Shown: positions 15,597 to 27,610, counted from the first letter of the stretch. The stretch is DNA of 27,610 bases from a virus (IMGVR_UViG_3300015360_000028:64001-91610), one strand, 5' to 3'. Notes: generated by a model from the sequence alone, not told the origin. Made by a program: numbers and translations.

Positions 15597-18500
15597 ATGG
15601 CCAATAACACCATCGATGCCAATAACTTCACGTTATCGACAGACTTAAACGTCGGTCCTTATTATGATGATTTCAATGCCTACAAAGATTTCTACAGAAT
15701 TCTTTATAAACCAGGTATGGCCGTTCAAGCACGTGAACTTACACAGATGCAAACGATGTTCCAGAAACAGATTGATCGTTTCGGTGAACACATTTTTAAA
15801 GAAGGCTCCATCGTAACTGGCTGCGCCTTCAACATCGATCTTAAAAGACCATTCGTTAAACTAAGAGATGCAAACTACGCGGCAGCAGCGGTGACAGTTG
15901 GCAACTTCGATGGCACTCTTGTTACAGGCGCGACGTCAGGTGTAAAGGCATATGTCTTAACCTCAAACACAGGTTCAGAAGCCGGGGCACCTGATTACAA
16001 AACTATTCATGTCAATTATACCGCATCAGGAACTAACACTCTAGCCTCTACCTTCATTGTAGGCGAAAGACTAAACGCTAACACAGGCTTCTCAGCTAAC
16101 GTTATTTCGTCAAACACAGGATTGGGGTATGGTTCATCCTTCACAGTTGGCGACGGCGTTATTTTCGCAAAAGAACATTTTATTAGAATTGCCGAGCAGA
16201 CAATTGTCCTCGAAAAATATTCAGTGACACCTTCATATAGAGTCGGTTTCAATGTTGTTGAAAGCATCGTAACCTATAACGAAGACACCTCATTAAACGA
16301 CCCTGCTCAAGGTTCTTATAACTACGCAGCACCAGGCGCCGATCGTTTGAAATTAAATGCAGTTCTTGAAAAAAGAGCTCTAACAGCGAACACAGCAAAC
16401 TTCGCTGAATTGTTCTTAATCGAAAACGGCGTTATCAAATCAAAAGCCCAAACGCCACAATACTCAGTTATTCGTGATGAACTCGCCAGAAGAACAGAAG
16501 ATGAATCAGGAAATTACACTGTTCGTGGCCTCGACGTTATCGTTCGTGAACACTTAAATTCTAACACAAACAACGGCGTCTACTATTCAGACGCTGGTGG
16601 TAATCCTTTGAAACTTGCTGCAGGTGTTGAACCCGGTAAGGCTTATGTCAAAGGTTATGATTACGAAAACCTCTACACAAGATATCTTGATATTGATAAG
16701 GGTATCGATTTCATTGATATCGAGCAGCAGACCATTTCAGCAAATTATGGCTCTTATGTATATGTCAACGACGTTTGTGGTTTCTGGGATGTGAACACCC
16801 AACCACTCGTTAAACTCTACAGCACAGCACAAAACAAAGTTTCAGGCAGCTCATATTCAACAGGTTCTGCCTCAGGAGCGATGATCGGTACTGCCAGAGC
16901 TAGAGCAATCGTTTATAATTCTGGAACTGTAAATAATCCAAACGCTGTCTACAAACTATATCTTCATGATATTAAAATGTCTAACGGCGCCTTCTCAGCG
17001 ACCCGCGCAGTCCTCCTAGATGGTGTGACAACAAAGGGCTTTGCTGACACAGTGTTGGTTTCAAACAACACAGTTCTTCAGGAAACTTCTTTTGACACCT
17101 CTGTGTTTATACTTCCTGCAAAAGCAGTGAAGAGAATTAGAGACTCCGCCGGCAACATTGACAACTCATTTCAGTTCTACAAATATTTCGACGTTACAAT
17201 CGCTTCGGGCGGAACATTCTCGATCGCTACCGGTGCAGTTGATGAAACGTTCCCGTATTCAGCAGGTTTATTGAACAACACTCAGATGCTAGCAGACATG
17301 TATGTAGTGACCAATGCTACTCAGCATACGGCTTCTTTGACAGGCACGATCAGCGTAAATTCTGGCTCCAATACATTCAACGGATTGGGCACAGCGTTCA
17401 CAACTCAGCTCGCAGTCGACGATCATATTAGAATCGGTGGCGGCACTATCTACAGAATTCATTCAATTACAAGCGCAAACACCTTAATCGTTACAACTCA
17501 GCCAGGCGGTAACCTGGCATCACAGGTTTATGTAAGAACTTATTATCAGGGCAAGATTATTGACTTCACAAGAACAGGAGCAACCGGTACATCTAGATCG
17601 GTAAACATCACCTCTGCAACCGGTGCAACATTCGACATGAAAGAAACCTTAGCAAGTACAGTATCTGCTACAGCAATCGTGAAGCTAAACAAAGTCGATG
17701 GCCAAGAAAAGAGAAAGGTTCTAAACGCTGACAAATATGTGAAGATCAGAATTTCAACACATCCTTTGACAACCACAGGACCTTGGACACTAGGTATTCC
17801 AGACGTATTCAATATCGTTTCAGTAAGAAGACATACAGCCAACTTCACAACCGTGAGTGATGGTACAGATGTGACTTCATATTTCACCTTGAACACAGGG
17901 CAAACAGATACTCTCTACAACCACTCATCTATTGTAAACTCAGGTGGATTGACTATTGCTTCCGGCGATTACTTACTGGTGAAACTTGATTACTTTGCAC
18001 ATGATACCTCTCAGGGGGTGGGTTACTTCTCAGTTGATTCTTATCCAGTTGATGATATCTCAGTAGCAAATACATCAGCAATAACCACCAAGGAAATTCC
18101 GAGATATACTTCGCCGACATCAGGCATTCTTTATGATCTAAGAGATTCAATTGATATTCGTCCGTCTGTTACGCTCACAGCAAACAGCGTTTCAACATTG
18201 ACCAACATCTCGCAGAATCCAGCAGAATCTACAACACTCGCAACGGTTACTGGTGGCCTCCACTATATGCCACCGAATTCGTATATGCTAGCTGATTTGT
18301 CTTATTATCTTTCGAGAAAAGATTTGGTTACTCTAAACAGCCGTGGTGATTATAAGGTAATTCGTGGCGTTCCTTCGAAATTCCCAATCACACCGACCGC
18401 GCCAGACGACTCGATGACTCTTTCAAAAATTGAAGTAAGTCCATTCCCATCCTTAACAACTTCCATTGCACAGGCATATGGTCGTCAGGACTTGTCAATT

Positions 18501-19346
18501 ACTTTGAAAAAGATTGAGAACAAGCGTTACACAATGAGAGATATCGGCGTCCTAGAAAATCGTATAAATAACTTAGAATATTATGTGACATTGTCATTGC
18601 TAGAAAAAGATACCAAAGATCTAGTTGTTCTAGATGGTAACGGTTTAGATAGATTTAAGAATGGTATCTTAGTTGATTCGTTCACTGGCCACAATATCGG
18701 CAACGTTTATGATGTGGATTACAAGATTGCAATTGACCCATCGTTAGGTGAAGCAAGACCTCAGTTCTTCTTGAACAACGTGGAATTGTTCTTCAATGCC
18801 GCCGTCTCGTCAAATTACGCACGTAGCGCGGCAGACGCAACAATAACAGTGGCCAGTACGACAGCATTCGTAATTGGTGAATCAATTTATCAAGGTGCTA
18901 ACTTCGGTGCAGCTACAGCAGTTGGCGTATTGAGAAGAAAGTCTTCGACAAATCTATATCTTGAACAGGTAACAGGAACATTCGCTGGTGCCACTGCTAC
19001 AAAAGGAAACACTTCTGGTGGATCATCAGTATCCTCAGCAGTAGCACTTCCAACACTTAGTAAGCTGGTGACGCTTCCATATACTCATGAAACACTAATT
19101 GATCAGCCATATTCTACAACCGCAAGAAATCCAGCGGGACTTTTTTACAGATGGAAAGGCGTATTGACGCTGAACCCAGATGCAGATTATTGGGTAGACA
19201 CGACACAGGTTCCAGACGTCCAGGTGAACTTCGACAATAACAAAGATAACTGGGTGCAGAATGTCGGCGTTTGGAGAACTGAATGGAACAACTGGCAGAC
19301 AAACGTTACAGGAACGGCGGGAGACAGAATAAATGAAAAGAGATAG
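15597..19346 (+). CDS. DUF4815/VrlC-like virion structural protein, N-terminal part
   Basis: LNV.PYYDDF....FYRIL.KPG.AVQARELTQ.Q, RT..ESG.Y.V, GKAYV.GY, NKRYTMRDIG.LE.RI.NLEYY..LSLLE, RFKNG..VD.F motifs. Ends at W..WQT, where homologues normally continue. Confidence 0.85.
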   Translation: MANNTIDANNFTLSTDLNVGPYYDDFNAYKDFYRILYKPGMAVQARELTQMQTMFQKQIDRFGEHIFKEGSIVTGCAFNIDLKRPFVKLRDANYAAAAVTVGNFDGTLVTGATSGVKAYVLTSNTGSEAGAPDYKTIHVNYTASGTNTLASTFIVGERLNANTGFSANVISSNTGLGYGSSFTVGDGVIFAKEHFIRIAEQTIVLEKYSVTPSYRVGFNVVESIVTYNEDTSLNDPAQGSYNYAAPGADRLKLNAVLEKRALTANTANFAELFLIENGVIKSKAQTPQYSVIRDELARRTEDESGNYTVRGLDVIVREHLNSNTNNGVYYSDAGGNPLKLAAGVEPGKAYVKGYDYENLYTRYLDIDKGIDFIDIEQQTISANYGSYVYVNDVCGFWDVNTQPLVKLYSTAQNKVSGSSYSTGSASGAMIGTARARAIVYNSGTVNNPNAVYKLYLHDIKMSNGAFSATRAVLLDGVTTKGFADTVLVSNNTVLQETSFDTSVFILPAKAVKRIRDSAGNIDNSFQFYKYFDVTIASGGTFSIATGAVDETFPYSAGLLNNTQMLADMYVVTNATQHTASLTGTISVNSGSNTFNGLGTAFTTQLAVDDHIRIGGGTIYRIHSITSANTLIVTTQPGGNLASQVYVRTYYQGKIIDFTRTGATGTSRSVNITSATGATFDMKETLASTVSATAIVKLNKVDGQEKRKVLNADKYVKIRISTHPLTTTGPWTLGIPDVFNIVSVRRHTANFTTVSDGTDVTSYFTLNTGQTDTLYNHSSIVNSGGLTIASGDYLLVKLDYFAHDTSQGVGYFSVDSYPVDDISVANTSAITTKEIPRYTSPTSGILYDLRDSIDIRPSVTLTANSVSTLTNISQNPAESTTLATVTGGLHYMPPNSYMLADLSYYLSRKDLVTLNSRGDYKVIRGVPSKFPITPTAPDDSMTLSKIEVSPFPSLTTSIAQAYGRQDLSITLKKIENKRYTMRDIGVLENRINNLEYYVTLSLLEKDTKDLVVLDGNGLDRFKNGILVDSFTGHNIGNVYDVDYKIAIDPSLGEARPQFFLNNVELFFNAAVSSNYARSAADATITVASTTAFVIGESIYQGANFGAATAVGVLRRKSSTNLYLEQVTGTFAGATATKGNTSGGSSVSSAVALPTLSKLVTLPYTHETLIDQPYSTTARNPAGLFYRWKGVLTLNPDADYWVDTTQVPDVQVNFDNNKDNWVQNVGVWRTEWNNWQTNVTGTAGDRINEKR

Positions 19347-19395
19347 AAACGGCAATCAAGTTGATTCTAACAGACCGTCTTCGTAAGGGCAAATA

Positions 19396-22191
19396 ATGGC
19401 AACGACACCTAAACAATTTAGAAGTTCAACAACGGCTGCGGCGGCGGCGGCGCCGGCGGCGGCAGACACAACGTCTAGAAGAATTACTGATATTAGAACT
19501 GGAACAAGAACTACCGTTGTTCCTGAAACTGTAAATCAGAGTCTTGGGGCAAAGGTAATAGACGTTTCAATTAGACCGTGGATTAGACCTAGAGAAGTTC
19601 AGTTCACCGCACATGGCATGAAACCCTCAACAAGATTGTGGGCATTTTTTGATGGCGAACCAGTAAAAGATTATATCATTCCAACGAACTCATCTTTCGC
19701 TAACACAGGAAGCCAAGGCTCGTTTCTAACCTCAAACTCTTTAGGAAGTGTCTATGGCATTTTCAAGATCCCAAACTCAGAAGCACTTCGTTTCAGAACA
19801 GGGCAGAGAATCTTTAGAATTTGTGATAGCATTGACAACTCACAAGAGTTGGGGCTTGTAAATACCTCAGCAGAATCAGAATACAACGCAGATGGTCTTC
19901 ATCAAACCGTACAAGACACAGTCATATCGACTAAAGTGCCAAGAATCGTAACAGAAACAGTTACTGAAACAAGAACAAGAGAGCCCCCCTCTGTAAATCG
20001 GCCGGGGCTCAATGATCGGGGGGGGTGTTGCTTCGATCCAAAATCATTGGTTACGATGGCAGATGGTTCCACAAAGCAAATTAAAGATGTAGTCATTGGT
20101 GATAGAGTGCAAGGTTCTACAATGATCAACACAGTTCTTGGAATTGATATTCCAAAACTCTTTTCTAGATATATGTGTTCTTTCAATAACAATTGGGAAT
20201 TCATTTCTGAAGAACACCCTATTATGACAGACAAAGGATGGTCGGCATTTGAACCAGAAAGTCCATATGTAGATTACATGTTCATCGGCAAACTAGCAAA
20301 ACTAGACATCGGTTCTAAAGTTCTAAAGTTAGATGGATCTTGGGAAGAGGTCGTGACGATAAATTACATCGAACAGCCAGAAGATATGGATATTTATAAT
20401 CTTCTATTAGACGGTGATCACACCTATTATGTCGAAGGGTATTCAGTTCACAACAAAGGCTCTGATCCTATAGCACAATCATTCACAATACCGGATGAAA
20501 TTGACAATAACCCAGTTCAGATTGGTGTGTTCGTTACGAAGATCGATTTGTTCTTCCAACAGAAAGACGCAACTCTTCCGGTCATTGTTGAACTCCGTGA
20601 AATGTCTGGTGGTATTATTCTTTCGTCTAGAATGTTGCCTTACTCGCAAGTCATATTATTCCCAGCAGACGTGAACGTTAGTGAAGATGGTTCTGTGGCT
20701 ACACAGTTCGTATTTACAGCACCAGTGTTTCTATACTCGAGGACTGAATACGCATTCGTCGTAAAGCCAGGTGGAACAAATCCGAACTATAAAGTTTGGA
20801 CCTCTAAATTAGGAGAAGAAGATCTTCTAACTGGTTTCAGAATTAATCAGCAGCCAGCAACAGGTGTTCTACTTGCTTCTTCTAACGATTCGACTTGGTC
20901 GGCCGTACAAGATGAAGATATCAAGTTCACACTTTATAGAGCTGAATTCAACAACACTGTGACAGGAAATATTTATCTTGTTAATGAGGGCAAAGACTTC
21001 CTTACTGCCAACAACTCAACTGGATTGTTTGATCTAGAAGCAGTAAGAGGCGAAACAAGATTGACAGTAGGTGCATTAGCAAATGGTACACCAATAGTCG
21101 GGCAAAAGATTTATGGTCTAACTTCTACAACATATGGAACAATCACTAATATTGCCGGCGGTGTTTATAGATTAAAGGACGTCTCGTTTGGAAAAAACTT
21201 CACAGCAGCTGAAGTCCTTCGTTTCAGATACTCAAACAATTTCAACACAGGTGCAACTGGTACTGCAACATCTTATACCCAGCCAACTGGCAAGATCAAT
21301 TTTTATGATATCTATTCCTCAGCAAACACTCTGATTCATATCGCCAACACAGCAGGTGGTTACATTGCAGGCGAATGGATTCAAGGGATGAGCTCAAATA
21401 CTCAGGCCCTAATCCACTCTATCGATGATCTCCAGGTAAACGTATTCCAACCAGATGTGAACTACATCGAGTTTGCTAACACAAACGTTGATTGGTATGC
21501 GAAGACAACTTCAACTGGTCATGCACTTGGATCGACATTCGATCTAATCAATATGGCCGATAACAATGAAACAGCCACAGAAAAAAGAGTTGTTTCTAAA
21601 TCTAAAGAAATCTCAGATATGACCTCGAACAAATCTTTCCAAATCAAGGGAATGATGACGTCAGAATCAAGCCTCTTGTCTCCAGCAATTGATTTGTCGC
21701 TTGCAGGTGTAACCTTAGTCGGTAATATCATAAACAATGTTTCAACAAACGAAACAGGTAAGACAGGTGGAGATGCTAAGGCCAGATATATCACAAGAAT
21801 CGTGACACTCGATGAAGGTCAAGATGCAGAAGATTTGAAGGTCTATGCAACTGTTTACAAACCAGCCGGAACTGATATAAAAGTCTACTATAAGATTCTA
21901 CATGCTGAAGACTCAGATGATTTCTCAGACTTCTCATGGGTCGAAATGGGACAAGACAACACTTCAACATTGGTTTCAGATAATGTCGATAAGTTCGACT
22001 ATAAAGAATTCTCATGGTCGGTTCCAACAGCTAAATTGACAGGGCCGCTTGGTCAGGTTCGTTACACAAACTCAGCCTCGGTTGTCTTTACTGGGTTCAA
22101 AAGATTTATGATTAAAGCAATTCTTCTGGGTTCTGATACATCAGTCATTCCTAGAATGGCCGATATTCGTGTCCTAGCAATGCAGAAATAA
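19396..22191 (+). CDS. DUF4815/VrlC-like virion structural protein, C-terminal part, containing a Hint domain
   Basis: P.IRPR.V.F.A.G.KP.TR...FFDG, DP.AQSF, K.DLFF..KD, W...Q.EDIKF.LYRA.F, F..F.IK..L...D....PR..D.R..A. AAGGG RBS and ATG. Confidence 0.85.
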   Translation: MATTPKQFRSSTTAAAAAAPAAADTTSRRITDIRTGTRTTVVPETVNQSLGAKVIDVSIRPWIRPREVQFTAHGMKPSTRLWAFFDGEPVKDYIIPTNSSFANTGSQGSFLTSNSLGSVYGIFKIPNSEALRFRTGQRIFRICDSIDNSQELGLVNTSAESEYNADGLHQTVQDTVISTKVPRIVTETVTETRTREPPSVNRPGLNDRGGCCFDPKSLVTMADGSTKQIKDVVIGDRVQGSTMINTVLGIDIPKLFSRYMCSFNNNWEFISEEHPIMTDKGWSAFEPESPYVDYMFIGKLAKLDIGSKVLKLDGSWEEVVTINYIEQPEDMDIYNLLLDGDHTYYVEGYSVHNKGSDPIAQSFTIPDEIDNNPVQIGVFVTKIDLFFQQKDATLPVIVELREMSGGIILSSRMLPYSQVILFPADVNVSEDGSVATQFVFTAPVFLYSRTEYAFVVKPGGTNPNYKVWTSKLGEEDLLTGFRINQQPATGVLLASSNDSTWSAVQDEDIKFTLYRAEFNNTVTGNIYLVNEGKDFLTANNSTGLFDLEAVRGETRLTVGALANGTPIVGQKIYGLTSTTYGTITNIAGGVYRLKDVSFGKNFTAAEVLRFRYSNNFNTGATGTATSYTQPTGKINFYDIYSSANTLIHIANTAGGYIAGEWIQGMSSNTQALIHSIDDLQVNVFQPDVNYIEFANTNVDWYAKTTSTGHALGSTFDLINMADNNETATEKRVVSKSKEISDMTSNKSFQIKGMMTSESSLLSPAIDLSLAGVTLVGNIINNVSTNETGKTGGDAKARYITRIVTLDEGQDAEDLKVYATVYKPAGTDIKVYYKILHAEDSDDFSDFSWVEMGQDNTSTLVSDNVDKFDYKEFSWSVPTAKLTGPLGQVRYTNSASVVFTGFKRFMIKAILLGSDTSVIPRMADIRVLAMQK
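19435..19464 (+). repeat. (GCG)n-rich microsatellite encoding AAAAAAPAAA
   Basis: GCT GCG GCG GCG GCG GCG CCG GCG GCG GCA in an otherwise A/T-ending codon context. Confidence 0.85.
20029..20454 (+). other. Hint (intein-like, BIL-A/pretoxin-HINT type) domain, 142 aa, no homing endonuclease
   Basis: CFDPKSLVTMADG...IKDV.IGD.V (block A), SEEHP (block B), IYNLLLDGDHTYYVEG (block F), terminal VHN. The +1 residue is Lys. Confidence 0.9.
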
Positions 22192-22442: not shown

Positions 22443-23939
22443 ATGACTATCACCTTAATGGATGTTTCCAATACCAGCCCTGTCACAGTTCTACAGCAGG
22501 CGGTAAAGATTAATGAAATTGCTAACACCGTCAACATTATGGGTGCTGGTGGTAATCTAGTTTCTAACACTTACGCACAGGTAACATTCGCGAAATATGG
22601 CGCCACGCAGACCATTTCTGGTGCGTGGACATTTACAGCAATACCAACGATGAACAACGTCGTTCTTCGTTTAGCGAATGGTACGGCATCTCTTCCTTCT
22701 CTATCAAGAGCATCTGATACAAACAACGGTATCTATTTTCCAGGAACTGACGCAATAGGCTTTGCCCACAATGGCGTGCAGTATATGGTTTCCAATACTT
22801 CAGGTGTCTTCAACAAAGGCATCAATTTCTACGTGGGCCATGGTTTAACCACAGCAAACGCTACACTTGAAGTTGGTACTGGTAGATCAGGATCTGGTTT
22901 CTCAAGAATTGATCTCGTCAGCGATACAACTTACACAGACGCCGGTCTTAGAATTCAAAGAGGCAACACAGGTGCCAATTCAAATACGGCCTTCGTCCAC
23001 AGAGGAACTGGTGAATTCCAGATTAATGCCTTTGATGCAGCCGGTTCAATTGGATTCTATGGAGCTAGCACTAGAAGATTGCAGATGGACACAGGTGGTC
23101 ATTTCGCCATTGGTTCAGGCAATCCAGAAGCCGGCACAGCCCTTTATATCACAAAGACAATGTCGGCTAACGCAACGAGCTATGGTTTCAGAGCAACCCC
23201 GACACTAAGTTCAACGATTACTGAATGGAATGGTTTTTATTCAGGATTCGCAACGCAAGCAACCCCATATGTTATTCAGAACATTTACAACTTCAGAGCA
23301 CGTGGTGCCGAACTTGTAGGTGGTGGTTCTTCCATGGTAAACCAATATGGCTTCTATGTTGGAACAAATCTTACCAATGCTTCAAACAACTTCGCATATT
23401 ATGGCGGTCTTACACACGCTAATAAGCGTTGGAATATTTATATGGCCGGCACCGCCAGAAACTATCTTGAAGGTAACACCGGCATTGGCACGATAACTGG
23501 CCTAGGCACTTACAAGCTAGCAGTTGGCGGTGACATCAACTTCACAGGAAATCTTTATAAAAACGGTTCCTTGTTCCAATCAGGCGTCCTTCTAAACGCC
23601 AACAATCAATTCACAAAAGCGCAAAGAGTAACAGTTGCTACATTAGCTGATGCTCCAACAATCACCCCAGATTTTACTGCGTCTAACTATTTTTACTTGA
23701 ACTTAAAGGGAAACAGAACGATTGATAATCCTTCAAGTATGGCTGCTGGCCAAACTGGAGTTATTGAAATCAAGCAAGCGAACACAGGAAGCAAAACACT
23801 TTCTTGGGGTTCACAATGGAAGTTCCCATCTAACACAGCACCTATCTTAACCGCAACCGTTGGAAGAAGTGATCTTGTATCATACTTCGTATCGAACGGC
23901 ACATTCATCTTCGCACAATTAAAGAACGATTTTTACTAA
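22443..23939 (+). CDS. Tail fibre protein
   Basis: N-terminal anchor-like segment; G.A..PS....D...G.YFPG.D.IG fibre motif; C-terminal NNQFTKAQR...GNRTI.NP....GQ.G.I...Q...GS.TL.WG..WKFP...AP.LT domain, often found before Gly-rich adhesin genes. Confidence 0.72.
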   Translation: MTITLMDVSNTSPVTVLQQAVKINEIANTVNIMGAGGNLVSNTYAQVTFAKYGATQTISGAWTFTAIPTMNNVVLRLANGTASLPSLSRASDTNNGIYFPGTDAIGFAHNGVQYMVSNTSGVFNKGINFYVGHGLTTANATLEVGTGRSGSGFSRIDLVSDTTYTDAGLRIQRGNTGANSNTAFVHRGTGEFQINAFDAAGSIGFYGASTRRLQMDTGGHFAIGSGNPEAGTALYITKTMSANATSYGFRATPTLSSTITEWNGFYSGFATQATPYVIQNIYNFRARGAELVGGGSSMVNQYGFYVGTNLTNASNNFAYYGGLTHANKRWNIYMAGTARNYLEGNTGIGTITGLGTYKLAVGGDINFTGNLYKNGSLFQSGVLLNANNQFTKAQRVTVATLADAPTITPDFTASNYFYLNLKGNRTIDNPSSMAAGQTGVIEIKQANTGSKTLSWGSQWKFPSNTAPILTATVGRSDLVSYFVSNGTFIFAQLKNDFY

Positions 23940-26900
23940 TGCATTTTTTTAATAATCAATTTTCTAATTATAACCGCAAGGTAACTTATCGTCTTGGCAG
24001 CATTATTGACAAATTCACAGCAATTGTTCCGCCTGGTGCCTCTGCCCTAAGATTAAAAATATGGGCAGCTGGTGGTTCTGCAGGTGGCTGGAATACGACT
24101 GCAGATCGTCTTGGTGGCGATGGTGCTGGCGGTGGTTTCTTTTCAGGGACTATGTCAGTTACCACAGGAGGCAGTTTCTCTGTATGGCTTTCTGGCCCAC
24201 AAACTTCACCTGTTGCTGGGCGCGGCGGTGCCGGCGGCGGTCATGTTCAAATTTATTATGCTGCTGCAGGAGTCTTGGCAGGAGGTCCCTCAATTGCAGT
24301 CGTTGGCGGTGGCGGCGGCGGTGGCGGCGCTGGGCAAAACGCAACCAGTTCTGGAGGTGCCGGCGGTGCCGGCGGCGGTTCTACCGGAGGATCAGGTAGT
24401 TTAAGCCAAGACGCTACATCTAATTTTGGTCAAGGTGGCTCTCAAATCGCGGGTGGTGTTGGCGGCGCCGGCGGAGCAGGTACGGATGGTGCAGCAGGTG
24501 GATCAGTTTCTGTAGACCCTGCGGGCGGTGGCGGCGGTAATGGTGGTGCTTCTGGTACAGGTGGTGCAGCTAATGCCGGGTCTATTGGCGGTGCTGGTGC
24601 TGGGGGTTCGATCACGTCGGGTCGTGGTGGCGGCGGCGGTGGTGGCGGCGGCTATTATGGCGGCGGTGGCGGCGAAGGGGGCCAAACATCAGGCAATGCC
24701 GGCGGCGCCGGCGGTGGAGGCGGCTCAACATGGCATGATACAGCTTATTTCACAAAAGTAGTTTCTACTCAGGGCTCAGGATCTAACGCAGCGAATATGA
24801 CAGACGTAGATTATATATCTGGCGTGGGTATGGGTGGTATATCAGTTCTAGATCAAGTCGGTGGAATGACTGGTGGAGATGCTATAGCAGTTTTTGAATG
24901 GGTCATGTCTGATCAGCCTACAACAAAAAAACACATTTTTTATGAACCAACAAGTGGTTCGGCGTTTCAAGTTCCAGACGGTGTTACAAGATTAGACGTA
25001 AAATTATGGGGAGCAGGGGGAGCTTCTGGAAGCCTCGGTGCTGCATTAGGAACTTCTGGCGCAGGCGGTGGCGGCGGAAACGTTAATGGATGGTTCGCAG
25101 TAACTCCTGGCGAAACCATTATGATCATCGTTGGCCACGGCGGCTTTGCCGTTCCAGCGGGTTCAACTGGTGGAGGAAGAGGCGGAAACGATACCAGCAT
25201 CTATAGACTTAAGATGCCGCCAACAAATTATCATGAGGCTGGAATCCAGCGTCTAAACACATATAAATGGGTCCCAATAGCTTTTGCTGGTGGAGGCGGC
25301 GGTGGAGGCGGCGTTGCTAATGTTGGAACTGGCGTAACTGCCGGTTCAGGTGGACCCGGCGGTGGCACAACAGCCATAAGCGGCGGAACGTCTACAGGAG
25401 GAACATCTAATGGTGTCGGTGCTTCTGGTGGCGACTCATCTGCCGGGGGTGCTCCTGGAGCAGGTGCCGGAACAGGATTAATAGGTATCACTGGCGATAC
25501 TTCTGCCGTATATGAAGGTGGCTCTGCTGGTGGCACATTATTACCTTCTACTGGCGTAAGAAGTGGCCAGCATAAATCCGGGGGCCTCACAAACGCTGAT
25601 ACTGCCACAGTAGGTGGCGGTGGCGGTGGCGGCGCAGGATATCATGGCGGTGGCGGTGGCGGCGGCGGTGGTCATGCGACTCTTGCTGCAGGCGGCGGTG
25701 GCGGTGGCGGTGGATCAAGCTACACAGGCCTCTTGTCAGGGGTAACCAGTACACAGGGATCTGGAACAGATCCCGCTGGATATGGAGATGCAGATTATAT
25801 TTATCCGGCTGGAACGGGCGGCGCGGCAATCGTGACAACCGCATCAGCCGCTAATGCAGGGAACCATGGCTTATGTGTTATCACACATGCTATTCCGGCA
25901 AAGAAAATAATAAAAAGAATTTTCGCCCATCATCTCGCTTCTTACAGAAATGTTAATTGGATAGTTCCTAAAGGTGTGTCTTCAGTGACCTTCAAAGTTT
26001 GGGGACCGGGAGGCAGTTCTGGTAATATATCGACAGGGTCCTCGATAAATGCCGGTGGCGGTGGCGGTGGTGGTTTCGCCCAAGGAACATTGGCAGTCAC
26101 ATCTGGCCAAGTATTTCAAATTCTTACATGCGTTAGATCTAGAAGATTATTCGCTAGTAACTCTGTTAGCGGTGGCTGTGGCGGTGCTATGGCTGCTGTC
26201 AGTCTTTATAGTGACGGCTCCTCCGGCTTAGCCGTAGCAATTCCTTATCTTATCGCTGGTGGTGGTGGTGGTGGTGGCGCTTCAGGAACCGTCGCCTCAG
26301 GATACGGCGGCGACGGTGGACCAGGTGGCGGCAGCACAGGCGGCGCAGGTGGAAATTCAAATGGTAATTCGGCCTTCGGCGGCGGGGGTGGAACTCAAGT
26401 AGCAGGCGGCACCGGCGGCACCGGCGGCGCAGGTGGTGATGGGGTAGCAGGAACCGCACAGCATGGTGGCGATGGTAATGGCACTCTGACTACTGCTGCA
26501 GCAGGAAATTTTAATGACAGTTATGGCAACGTCGGGGGGGCCGGCTCCGCCGGCGGCGGCGGAGGCGGCGGAGCCGGTTATTATGGCGGCGGCGGCGGCG
26601 AAAGTGCTTCACCATCTGGTGGCGGTGGAGGCGGCGGAGGATCTAACTTCCTTCATGCTTCTCTAACAAGTACCATAAGCACACAAGGTTCAGGCAGTAC
26701 TCCTGCTAACAACACAGATGAAGATTTTATAGACAGTGGTGATTATGGTTATGGTGCAAGACAAAATATAGTGGCTTCAGCTATTCCAGGAAATATGGGG
26801 TCGCAAGGATATGTAGTTGTCATTTATGATCAACGAGTCAGTGTCCCAGATTTTAATGCGAGTTATGAATTCGCACCAACAACTTCACAATCTTGGGTTG

Positions 26901-27610
26901 TTCCAAATAATTGTAGATATATATCAGCAAAACTTTGGGGAGCTGGCGGCGGCGGCGGCAATCATGGCGGAGTAGATGGCACAGTCAGTGATACTATCAC
27001 AAACGGATCATTCGGAGGATTGGGCGGAGGCGGAGCATTCCTTCATACTATGATTTCAGTTACACCAGGTGAAACTCTTACCATGAAAGTTGGTGGAGGT
27101 GGTCATGTAACGACCGGTGGCGGTGGAGGTGGCGGATATACTGCTATCTATCGTAGCTCTGTTCTATTGGCTATGACTGGAGGCGGTGGCGGTGGCGCCC
27201 AATCTGGCACCTTCGTATCCACGACCGGCCTATTCCACGGCGGTGGCTGTGGCGGTGGCGGTGGAATTCTTTCGGGAAATGGCGGCGAACATGCCAGACC
27301 TCACGCTTCAGGCGGTTCTCCTGGAACTCAAATAGCAGGTGGATTGACAGACAGTACATCTGGGGACGTGGGAACTTCTGGTTCTTCTCTTCAAGGAGGG
27401 CAAGGAGCCGGCACGGGAGTAGCAAGTTCAGGTGGATTTAATGGTGGTGGTGATGGTGGCAAAGCAAGTGGTGTGTCAGCCGGTGGTGGTGGCGGCGGTG
27501 GCGGCTATTATGGCGGAGCCGGCGGCAATAAAGCATCATCAGGAACTGACATGAGTGCAGGCGGTGGTGGCGGTTCTGGGTATCTTGGAGGCGATGTTGT
27601 CTTGGCCGAA
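23939..27610 (+). CDS. Giant glycine-rich adhesin (gp38-like/polyglycine-II modules, at least 4 in tandem), partial
   Basis: Manually translated, absent from the ORF track: ATG 23939 (TAATG overlap), open for 1224 codons to the window end. Repeated VP.G.....K(I/L/V)W(G/A)(A/P)GG...GGGGG(Y/H)GGGGG...STQGSG modules. Confidence 0.85.
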   Translation, partial: MHFFNNQFSNYNRKVTYRLGSIIDKFTAIVPPGASALRLKIWAAGGSAGGWNTTADRLGGDGAGGGFFSGTMSVTTGGSFSVWLSGPQTSPVAGRGGAGGGHVQIYYAAAGVLAGGPSIAVVGGGGGGGGAGQNATSSGGAGGAGGGSTGGSGSLSQDATSNFGQGGSQIAGGVGGAGGAGTDGAAGGSVSVDPAGGGGGNGGASGTGGAANAGSIGGAGAGGSITSGRGGGGGGGGGYYGGGGGEGGQTSGNAGGAGGGGGSTWHDTAYFTKVVSTQGSGSNAANMTDVDYISGVGMGGISVLDQVGGMTGGDAIAVFEWVMSDQPTTKKHIFYEPTSGSAFQVPDGVTRLDVKLWGAGGASGSLGAALGTSGAGGGGGNVNGWFAVTPGETIMIIVGHGGFAVPAGSTGGGRGGNDTSIYRLKMPPTNYHEAGIQRLNTYKWVPIAFAGGGGGGGGVANVGTGVTAGSGGPGGGTTAISGGTSTGGTSNGVGASGGDSSAGGAPGAGAGTGLIGITGDTSAVYEGGSAGGTLLPSTGVRSGQHKSGGLTNADTATVGGGGGGGAGYHGGGGGGGGGHATLAAGGGGGGGGSSYTGLLSGVTSTQGSGTDPAGYGDADYIYPAGTGGAAIVTTASAANAGNHGLCVITHAIPAKKIIKRIFAHHLASYRNVNWIVPKGVSSVTFKVWGPGGSSGNISTGSSINAGGGGGGGFAQGTLAVTSGQVFQILTCVRSRRLFASNSVSGGCGGAMAAVSLYSDGSSGLAVAIPYLIAGGGGGGGASGTVASGYGGDGGPGGGSTGGAGGNSNGNSAFGGGGGTQVAGGTGGTGGAGGDGVAGTAQHGGDGNGTLTTAAAGNFNDSYGNVGGAGSAGGGGGGGAGYYGGGGGESASPSGGGGGGGGSNFLHASLTSTISTQGSGSTPANNTDEDFIDSGDYGYGARQNIVASAIPGNMGSQGYVVVIYDQRVSVPDFNASYEFAPTTSQSWVVPNNCRYISAKLWGAGGGGGNHGGVDGTVSDTITNGSFGGLGGGGAFLHTMISVTPGETLTMKVGGGGHVTTGGGGGGGYTAIYRSSVLLAMTGGGGGGAQSGTFVSTTGLFHGGGCGGGGGILSGNGGEHARPHASGGSPGTQIAGGLTDSTSGDVGTSGSSLQGGQGAGTGVASSGGFNGGGDGGKASGVSAGGGGGGGGYYGGAGGNKASSGTDMSAGGGGGSGYLGGDVVLAE

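Follow-up and report, generated by a model that had tools for sequence, protein, structure and literature searches.

In class 1 inteins, transesterification needs a Cys, Ser, or Thr at the +1 position. A-type BIL/PT-HINT domains, such as BIL4 of Clostridium thermocellum (PDB 2LWY), have no such residue. They possess the Hint fold with Cys1, a block-B His, and a terminal His-Asn, carry no endonuclease, and lie in hypervariable linkers of non-enzymatic proteins, their hosts being secreted bacterial and toxin proteins. BIL domains have been described as inserted in variable linkers (PMC7765530). In BILs without a +1 nucleophile, cleavage at the N and C termini is the main activity and cleaved products predominate, and one mutation can convert such a domain to splicing (PMC7664689, PMC4031507). 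Splicing at a low level is possible for A-type BILs through a freed alpha-amine (PMC4031507). A different chemistry has been reported for BIL2 of Tetrahymena thermophila BUBL1 (PDB 6Y75 and 6TMM), a eukaryotic domain flanked by ubiquitin-like domains. According to the depositors of its structure, BIL2 forms an isopeptide bond between the epsilon-amine of a lysine and a C terminus, as a ubiquitin-dispensing platform (PMC8616854). The C-terminal autoprocessing domain of Hedgehog (PDB 1AT0) uses the Hint fold for N-terminal thioester chemistry.

We analyzed a window of 27,610 nucleotides that forms the end of a 91.6-kb IMG/VR contig (IMGVR_UViG_3300015360_000028:64001-91610) whose source is an uncultured T4-like phage. 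It encodes a Hint domain with the A-type BIL features listed above, but the host is a virion protein. The phage domain family also differs from A-type BILs in having a near-invariant Lys (or Arg) at +1 and in commonly forming tandem arrays without spacers. Our main reading, to which we assign a probability of roughly 55%, is that the domain is a BIL-A-like, endonuclease-free, single-turnover self-cleaving module in the linker between two modules of the virion protein. The features of the locus are as follows.

15597..19346, + strand: gene 1 of a split VrlC/DUF4815-type protein, P0002, 1,249 amino acids (Pfam DUF4815, E = 1.7e-58; phrog_358, E = 8.5e-258)
19347..19395, + strand: gap separating the two genes at the fission; an AAGG ribosome-binding site precedes the ATG, as read from the sequence
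19396..22191, + strand: gene 2, P0001, an open reading frame (ORF) of 931 amino acids matching the C-terminal part of phrog_358
19396..20028, + strand: N-part of gene 2, residues 1 to 211, ending in a variable linker and Cys211 (-1); it aligns with residues ~1062 to 1214 of single-ORF relatives
20029..20454, + strand: mini Hint domain, C212 to N353, 142 amino acids (Pfam, family profile, AlphaFold2, Foldseek)
20029..20031, + strand: Cys1 (C212), predicted to be the nucleophile that forms the thioester; no exception in alignments A1 and A3
20206..20217, + strand: block B, S271-E-E-H274, its His invariant in A1 and A3
20392..20433, + strand: block F, IYNLLLDGDHTYYV, from the alignment
20449..20457, + strand: block G, H352-N353, plus K354 (+1); HNK is invariant in A1 and A3
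20455..22191, + strand: C-part, K354 to K931 plus stop, a predicted released chain with homology to stand-alone proteins of relatives
20464..20484, + strand: DPIAQSF motif opening the C-terminal module, conserved in Hint-less relatives

P0002 and P0001 are the two halves of a large baseplate-associated virion protein of the VrlC/DUF4815 type. Genes similar to those of the baseplate wedge proteins gp6, gp7, and gp8 lie upstream of them. P0002 matches single-ORF relatives colinearly over their first ~1,000 residues, and the two proteins together are colinear with single ORFs of 1,778 to 2,221 amino acids in ~20 IMG/VR relatives. Ochrobactrum phage vB_OspM_OC (Kyanoviridae), the closest cultured relative, has a single ORF of 1,942 amino acids after gp7 and gp8, and this ORF is colinear with P0002 and P0001. 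In most relatives, the host protein is unbroken and Hint-less, with about 1,800 to 2,200 amino acids. An upstream gene fission, as the sequence-only reading had proposed, is thus borne out by the colinear single ORFs and by stops in both frames: the upstream frame has TAG at 19344 and TGA at 19359, and the downstream frame has TAA at 19384. Because of these stops, a single frameshift cannot unite P0002 and P0001, and joining by a single frameshift or readthrough was ruled out.

The C-part is 30 to 31% identical over its full length to stand-alone proteins of 565 to 567 amino acids in relatives. Its homologs occur in 1,693 GenBank phage records, where they are named VrlC, structural protein, or (putative) adsorption-associated tail protein. 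None of these 1,693 records carrying the host protein has such a Hint. A megablast search of positions 19000 to 21000 against GenBank phages gave no match, and the sequencing runs containing the window are microbial-mat metagenomes only, with no RNA data set among the runs listed. The presence of the Hint at this site was checked in an independent assembly. A Logan contig (15.6 kb, word depth 11.5), which probably originates from the source sample of the window, covers 19300-20900 including both Hint junctions and is identical, with 0 differences. Within the Hint, 198 nucleotides also match a contig of a second study. The GC content across the Hint, 0.37 to 0.38, is within the range of its gene and is therefore uninformative on recent acquisition.

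P0001 reads ...NDRGG-C211 / C212-FDPKSLVTMADGS ... SEEH274P ... IYNLLLDGDHTYYVEGYSV-H352-N353 / K354-GS-DPIAQSF. All parts of the Hint anatomy claimed by the sequence-only reading (C212 to N353 with Cys1, SEEH as block B, block F, HN, Lys at +1, Cys at -1, and no endonuclease) are present, and the span first noted, 20026-20466, corresponds exactly to C211 to D357. With only 142 amino acids, the domain has no room for an endonuclease. It occupies the end of a hypervariable linker, with three residues between N353 and the conserved DPxAQ(S/T)F motif. Its flanks are rich in Pro, Gly, or Asp and vary from relative to relative. Compared with the ORF of a single-ORF relative (L004), the domain is a clean insertion between the residues corresponding to 1214 and 1217 and costs the host protein no residues. 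The Cys at -1 is conserved in the clade with a CCFDP start, and C211 was considered as the true Cys1. We rejected it and placed Cys1 at C212, because the family alignment keeps the CF start (271 of the 279 domains among the matches listed begin with CF) while the -1 residue varies across the wider family.

Four Pfam Hint-clan models match the domain. Isolated, it scores 31.8 bits against Vint, which passes the gathering score of 27. The PT-HINT model (PF07591) has a gathering score of 27.7 bits; the whole protein reaches 20.1 bits and the isolated domain 23.6, and the match is confined to the C-terminal half of the model. Searching NCBIfam returned no useful family, and a single-sequence phmmer search against the PDB found nothing at E ≤ 0.001; the solved BILs were reached by the family profile only. 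With a 21-member profile, solved BIL and intein chains were matched at E values from 1e-11 to 1e-7, and N353 aligned with their terminal Asn. The best match both by profile (E = 1e-11) and by fold (TM = 0.76) was BUBL1 BIL2, to which identity is only ~19%. BIL4 (2LWY) was matched by the profile at E = 5e-10 and ranked 8th in Foldseek, while the Hedgehog domain was distant at rank 27. The AlphaFold2 model of the Hint has a mean pLDDT of 91.5 and a pTM of 0.86. The residue block containing K354 has a mean pLDDT of 94, and the residues beyond drop to 43. All 50 PDB matches listed by Foldseek are Hint folds with a probability of 1.00, and the assignment to the Hint fold is far beyond chance.

A BIL-A-like character had also been proposed. 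Judged from its sequence, the domain would be described as an A-type BIL (PMC4031507, PMC7765530): it has Cys1 and His-Asn, lacks both a +1 nucleophile and an endonuclease, and is located in a variable linker. It fails the Pfam PT-HINT threshold, however. The label "pretoxin" is not supported: PT-HINT is below its cutoff, and the C-terminal part, with counterparts in ~1,700 phage records, is a conserved structural domain and not a toxin.

We investigated how far the domain is distributed. Among the first 29 family domains found, 28 end in HNK. In a profile search of 1.84 billion representatives, 4,829 proteins matched at E ≤ 1e-10, 845 of them at E ≤ 1e-30. The proteins retrieved contain 279 full-length domains, and among these matches 214 end in HNK, 15 in HNR (K or R at +1 in 229), and 20 in HN followed by Cys, Ser, or Thr, counts that carry a top-150 bias relative to all 4,829 matches. 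Selection bias from the Lys in the query profile is small, because one column adds few of the at least 175 bits. The Lys at +1 is no oddity of this one copy; it is a near-invariant signature of the family, and an invariant one in the close clade. This clade, with the pattern GCCFDP...VHNK, was found in 17 viral contigs with 51 to 66% identity.

Family domains occur singly, in spacer-less tandem (HNK followed directly by CF), or at the extreme C terminus of large metagenomic phage proteins. Among the matches listed, up to 7 full-length tandem copies are found per protein. In 27 cases the domain lies ≤3 residues from the protein C terminus, and some members end in HNK plus one residue. The N-terminal flank is typically Pro-rich and the C-terminal flank Gly-rich. 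Only two partner domains recur, DUF4815 and a glycine-rich one, and no toxin domain is among the partners. Proteins of the DUF4815 type are a major host, with 23 proteins and 33 domains from several Hint subclades. A tblastn search of the Hint and its flanks against 50,697 phage records found only 8 distant Hints (24 to 32% identity), belonging to helicase inteins and a T7-like phage protein. The A3 scan of species-representative prokaryote genomes gave one weak partial match only (a Tepidisphaeraceae MAG); it was pattern-limited and is therefore not evidence of the absence of the family from bacteria. No Pfam model captures the HN-Lys end at its threshold, the only names in UniProt are automatic ones ("Hint domain containing protein") given to proteins of uncultured phages, and no paper describing the family was found in the literature consulted on DUF4815, tail-fiber Hint domains, and isopeptide-forming intein-like domains. 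The family is large, and its lysine signature, tandem arrays, and phage-virion context are apparently undescribed.

Surveying the occupancy of the site in homologs, we found six natural states at the boundary just ahead of DPxAQ(S/T)F. In the first and commonest, seen in the majority of relatives, the protein is unbroken and without a Hint. In the second, one Hint is fused on both sides, as in the window and in L039, P0006, P0011, P0017, and P0185. The third has Hints in tandem, two or three per protein (P0082 and P0077). In the fourth, the Hint is followed by a stop ~30 residues on, and the next gene starts from (D/N)PIAQ(S/T)F (L001, L002, and 13 IMG/VR loci). In the fifth, the gene is split at the same boundary without a Hint (L061 and L062). 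In the sixth, a Hint of the same clade has a Cys at +1 (GCCFDP...VHN / CDKGDPIAQSF) within an ORF of 2,221 amino acids (L055). A gene boundary directly after the Hint is thus found in at least 15 related phage loci. The relatives split there form essentially one clade, so these loci do not represent many independent events. In split relatives, the DPIAQSF motif stands at or near the N terminus of a separate gene product. Since the gene is split both with and without a Hint, the C-part works as a separate polypeptide, and the module boundary tolerates separate chains. These states are natural controls with which the interchange of self-cleaving domains and gene fission, and the role of the Lys at +1, can be tested.

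The Hint is the best-conserved segment of the protein. Against P0007 and P0069, identity is 66% in the Hint, 33% in the N-part, and 31% in the C-part. In relatives with a C-terminal Hint, dN/dS is 0.08 to 0.17 in the Hint versus 0.15 to 0.44 in the adjacent 200 residues of the N-part. The conservation and low dN/dS indicate that an activity of the Hint is under selection.

From the anatomy, fold, family-wide conservation, and purifying selection, we infer the following chemistry for self-cleavage. C212, together with the block-B His274, would convert the C211-C212 peptide bond into a thioester. Transesterification is precluded by the lack of Cys, Ser, or Thr at +1, so the thioester would be resolved mainly by hydrolysis, which would release the N-part (residues 1 to 211). 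Cyclization of Asn353, with His352, would break the N353-K354 bond and release a C-part starting with KGSDPIAQSF. Three chains, namely P0002, the N-part, and the C-part, would thus make up the virion component, and the Hint would be discarded. The residues needed for thioester formation and Asn cyclization are all present and invariant in the family (A1 and A3). A gene split right after the Hint is expected to be neutral if the Hint already severs the chain, which favors cleavage on both sides. Cleavage rather than canonical splicing had been preferred from the start, and gene boundaries lying exactly there in relatives, with and without a Hint, support that preference. Two points are less easily accommodated. 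Since most relatives are single chained, continuity of the N- and C-parts is probably ancestral and ligation might be wanted; and since HNK is invariant even before a short tail or a single residue, release of a C-terminal chain alone does not explain the Lys. If the domain is self-cleaving, BIL-type autoprocessing would extend from secreted bacterial proteins to phage virion assembly.

Amine-mediated ligation is a tentative alternative. Here, the epsilon-amine of Lys354, or the alpha-amine freed by Asn cyclization, would attack the thioester, so that the N- and C-parts are rejoined and the Hint leaves; by the epsilon-amine route, their junction would be an isopeptide bond. Because BIL2, the closest solved relative, makes Lys isopeptide bonds (PMC8616854), ligation through lysine is a live alternative. 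Like the phage Hint, BIL2 lies between two independently folded domains, although the flanks of the phage Hint are VrlC/DUF4815 structural modules and its Lys354 is a candidate nucleophile only. The near invariance of Lys or Arg at +1, its retention even in copies with almost no downstream sequence, and the high confidence of the modeled block containing K354 are consistent with such a role, as are the alpha-amine splicing of A-type BILs (PMC4031507) and the single chain found in the majority of relatives. However, joining is not required, since relatives split the gene after the Hint or split it there without one. Furthermore, BIL-A products are reported to be mostly cleaved, and the Lys could instead be structural or aid Asn cyclization.

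A broader version of this idea, which we think unlikely, is that the family forms a "lysine class" of Hint domains, in which a nucleophilic Lys at +1, by its epsilon-amine, or else a Lys of a neighboring protein would receive the Cys1 thioester, and Asn cyclization would then free the Hint. If true, virion proteins would be joined or cross-linked by isopeptide bonds without ATP, and the retention of HNK at the extreme C terminus and in spacer-less arrays would be explained. A domain with lysine as its nucleophile would be a compact, ATP-free isopeptide ligase, useful to protein engineering.

Transfer in trans, as in Hedgehog or BUBL, is improbable in our judgment. A nucleophile of another molecule, such as a Lys of a neighboring baseplate protein or an amine of the cell envelope, would attack the C211 thioester and anchor the N-part covalently. 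The C-terminal placement of the Hint in many family members is Hedgehog-like. In 15 relatives, a C-terminal Hint is followed by a low-complexity tail only, yet it is under strong purifying selection; other members that end in HNK plus one residue have a Hedgehog-type architecture, and BIL2 has been described as conjugating its N-terminal flank to several substrates. But the acceptor is hypothetical, self-removal suffices to explain the selection, and His-Asn is conserved although it is needless for pure N-terminal transfer. The Hedgehog domain itself has no His-Asn and has a sterol-recognition region, whereas the phage Hint has His-Asn and nothing similar to that region after it.

One could also take the Hint for the inactive remains of a decaying intein, retained as a spacer, or for an artifact of assembly. 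The missing +1 nucleophile, the Cys at +1 in the sister copy at the same site, and the metagenomic origin of the contig might suggest this, but it is very unlikely given invariant catalytic residues, a Hint more conserved than its flanks with a dN/dS (about 0.1) below that of the host protein, and the support of the two additional contigs.

The phage Hint shares its fold and its blocks A, B, F, and G with class 1 mini-inteins such as the cyanophage-like gp41-1 (PDB 6QAZ). Class 1 mini-inteins transesterify, however, a step that the Lys at +1 excludes. The phage Hint lies in a variable linker and appears to adjoin a conserved motif rather than interrupt it. At the same host site, the sister copy in L055 ends in HN-Cys and resembles a canonical mini-intein. 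As a self-removing module, the Hint under the self-cleavage reading has a functional analog in the Peptidase_S74 intramolecular chaperone domains of phage tail fibers and spikes, which are unrelated in fold and chemistry (a Ser-Lys dyad protease) and have no sequence similarity to it. Proteins of the Peptidase_S74 type are encoded two or three genes downstream in L001 and L002.

The gene for the host protein of the Hint domain, a DUF4815/VrlC-type protein, is broken exactly before DPLAQ(S/T)F in two relatives that lack the Hint (L061:1980-8446 and L062:3-4125), with stop and start codons overlapping at the split in L061 (TAATG). At 15597-19395 of the window, the first gene break comes after residue 1249 of P0002, the upstream part of the split protein, whereas in L001 and L002, relatives with a gene boundary shortly after the Hint, it comes after residues ~1025 to 1039, a position that corresponds roughly to residue 958 in P0002. 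Because these first breaks differ in place, the host-protein family has been split more than once.

An unsplit DUF4815/VrlC-type protein of 2,221 amino acids (L055:1735-8397) carries a Hint at residues 1425 to 1580. This copy belongs to the GCCFDP clade, as does the Hint of the window, occupies the identical site, and ends in VHN|C followed by DKGDPIAQSF. It has the look of a canonical mini-intein with Cys at +1. HN-Cys copies are also found within other proteins, in L047 to L050 and L059.

Small Cys-led domains of unknown function directly follow HNK, the His-Asn end of the Hint with Lys at +1, in P0030, P0015, P0090, L041, and L045; P0034 and P0092; and P0108. Three kinds occur, with the sequences ICTKLHELG.LP..IY.ADE, CVIATH...WCE..LHDKW.G, and CCWVARKVYGEDNPDW. 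These domains could be released payloads.

Many Hint arrays close with a degenerate final Hint lacking His-Asn (P0005, P0073, P0078, L042, L051, L052, and L056 to L058), with the pattern ...TVNG(Y/F)GT(T/S)S..GDGG... and then a conserved helical, LVEQGHIT-like segment; it may represent a distinct type of terminal processing. Four giant proteins of 3,300 to 4,100 amino acids (P0070, P0080, P0088, and P0091) contain two to five tandem HNK Hints, preceded by a hydrophobic Ala/Gly-rich segment and followed by Gly linkers and repeated domains.

No second Hint was found across the 91.6-kb contig containing the window. Downstream of the Hint gene lies a giant glycine-rich open reading frame (23939-27610), and PF21722, a Pfam glycine-rich domain, co-occurs with the Hint family in other proteins (P0005 and P0030). 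The cultured, T7-like Providencia phage PSTNGR1 (MW145136.1) encodes a 317-amino-acid protein annotated as hypothetical (QPB11246.1; L025:2554-3507), with a C-terminal Hint that begins CFTEDCLVLMADGS and lacks His-Asn.
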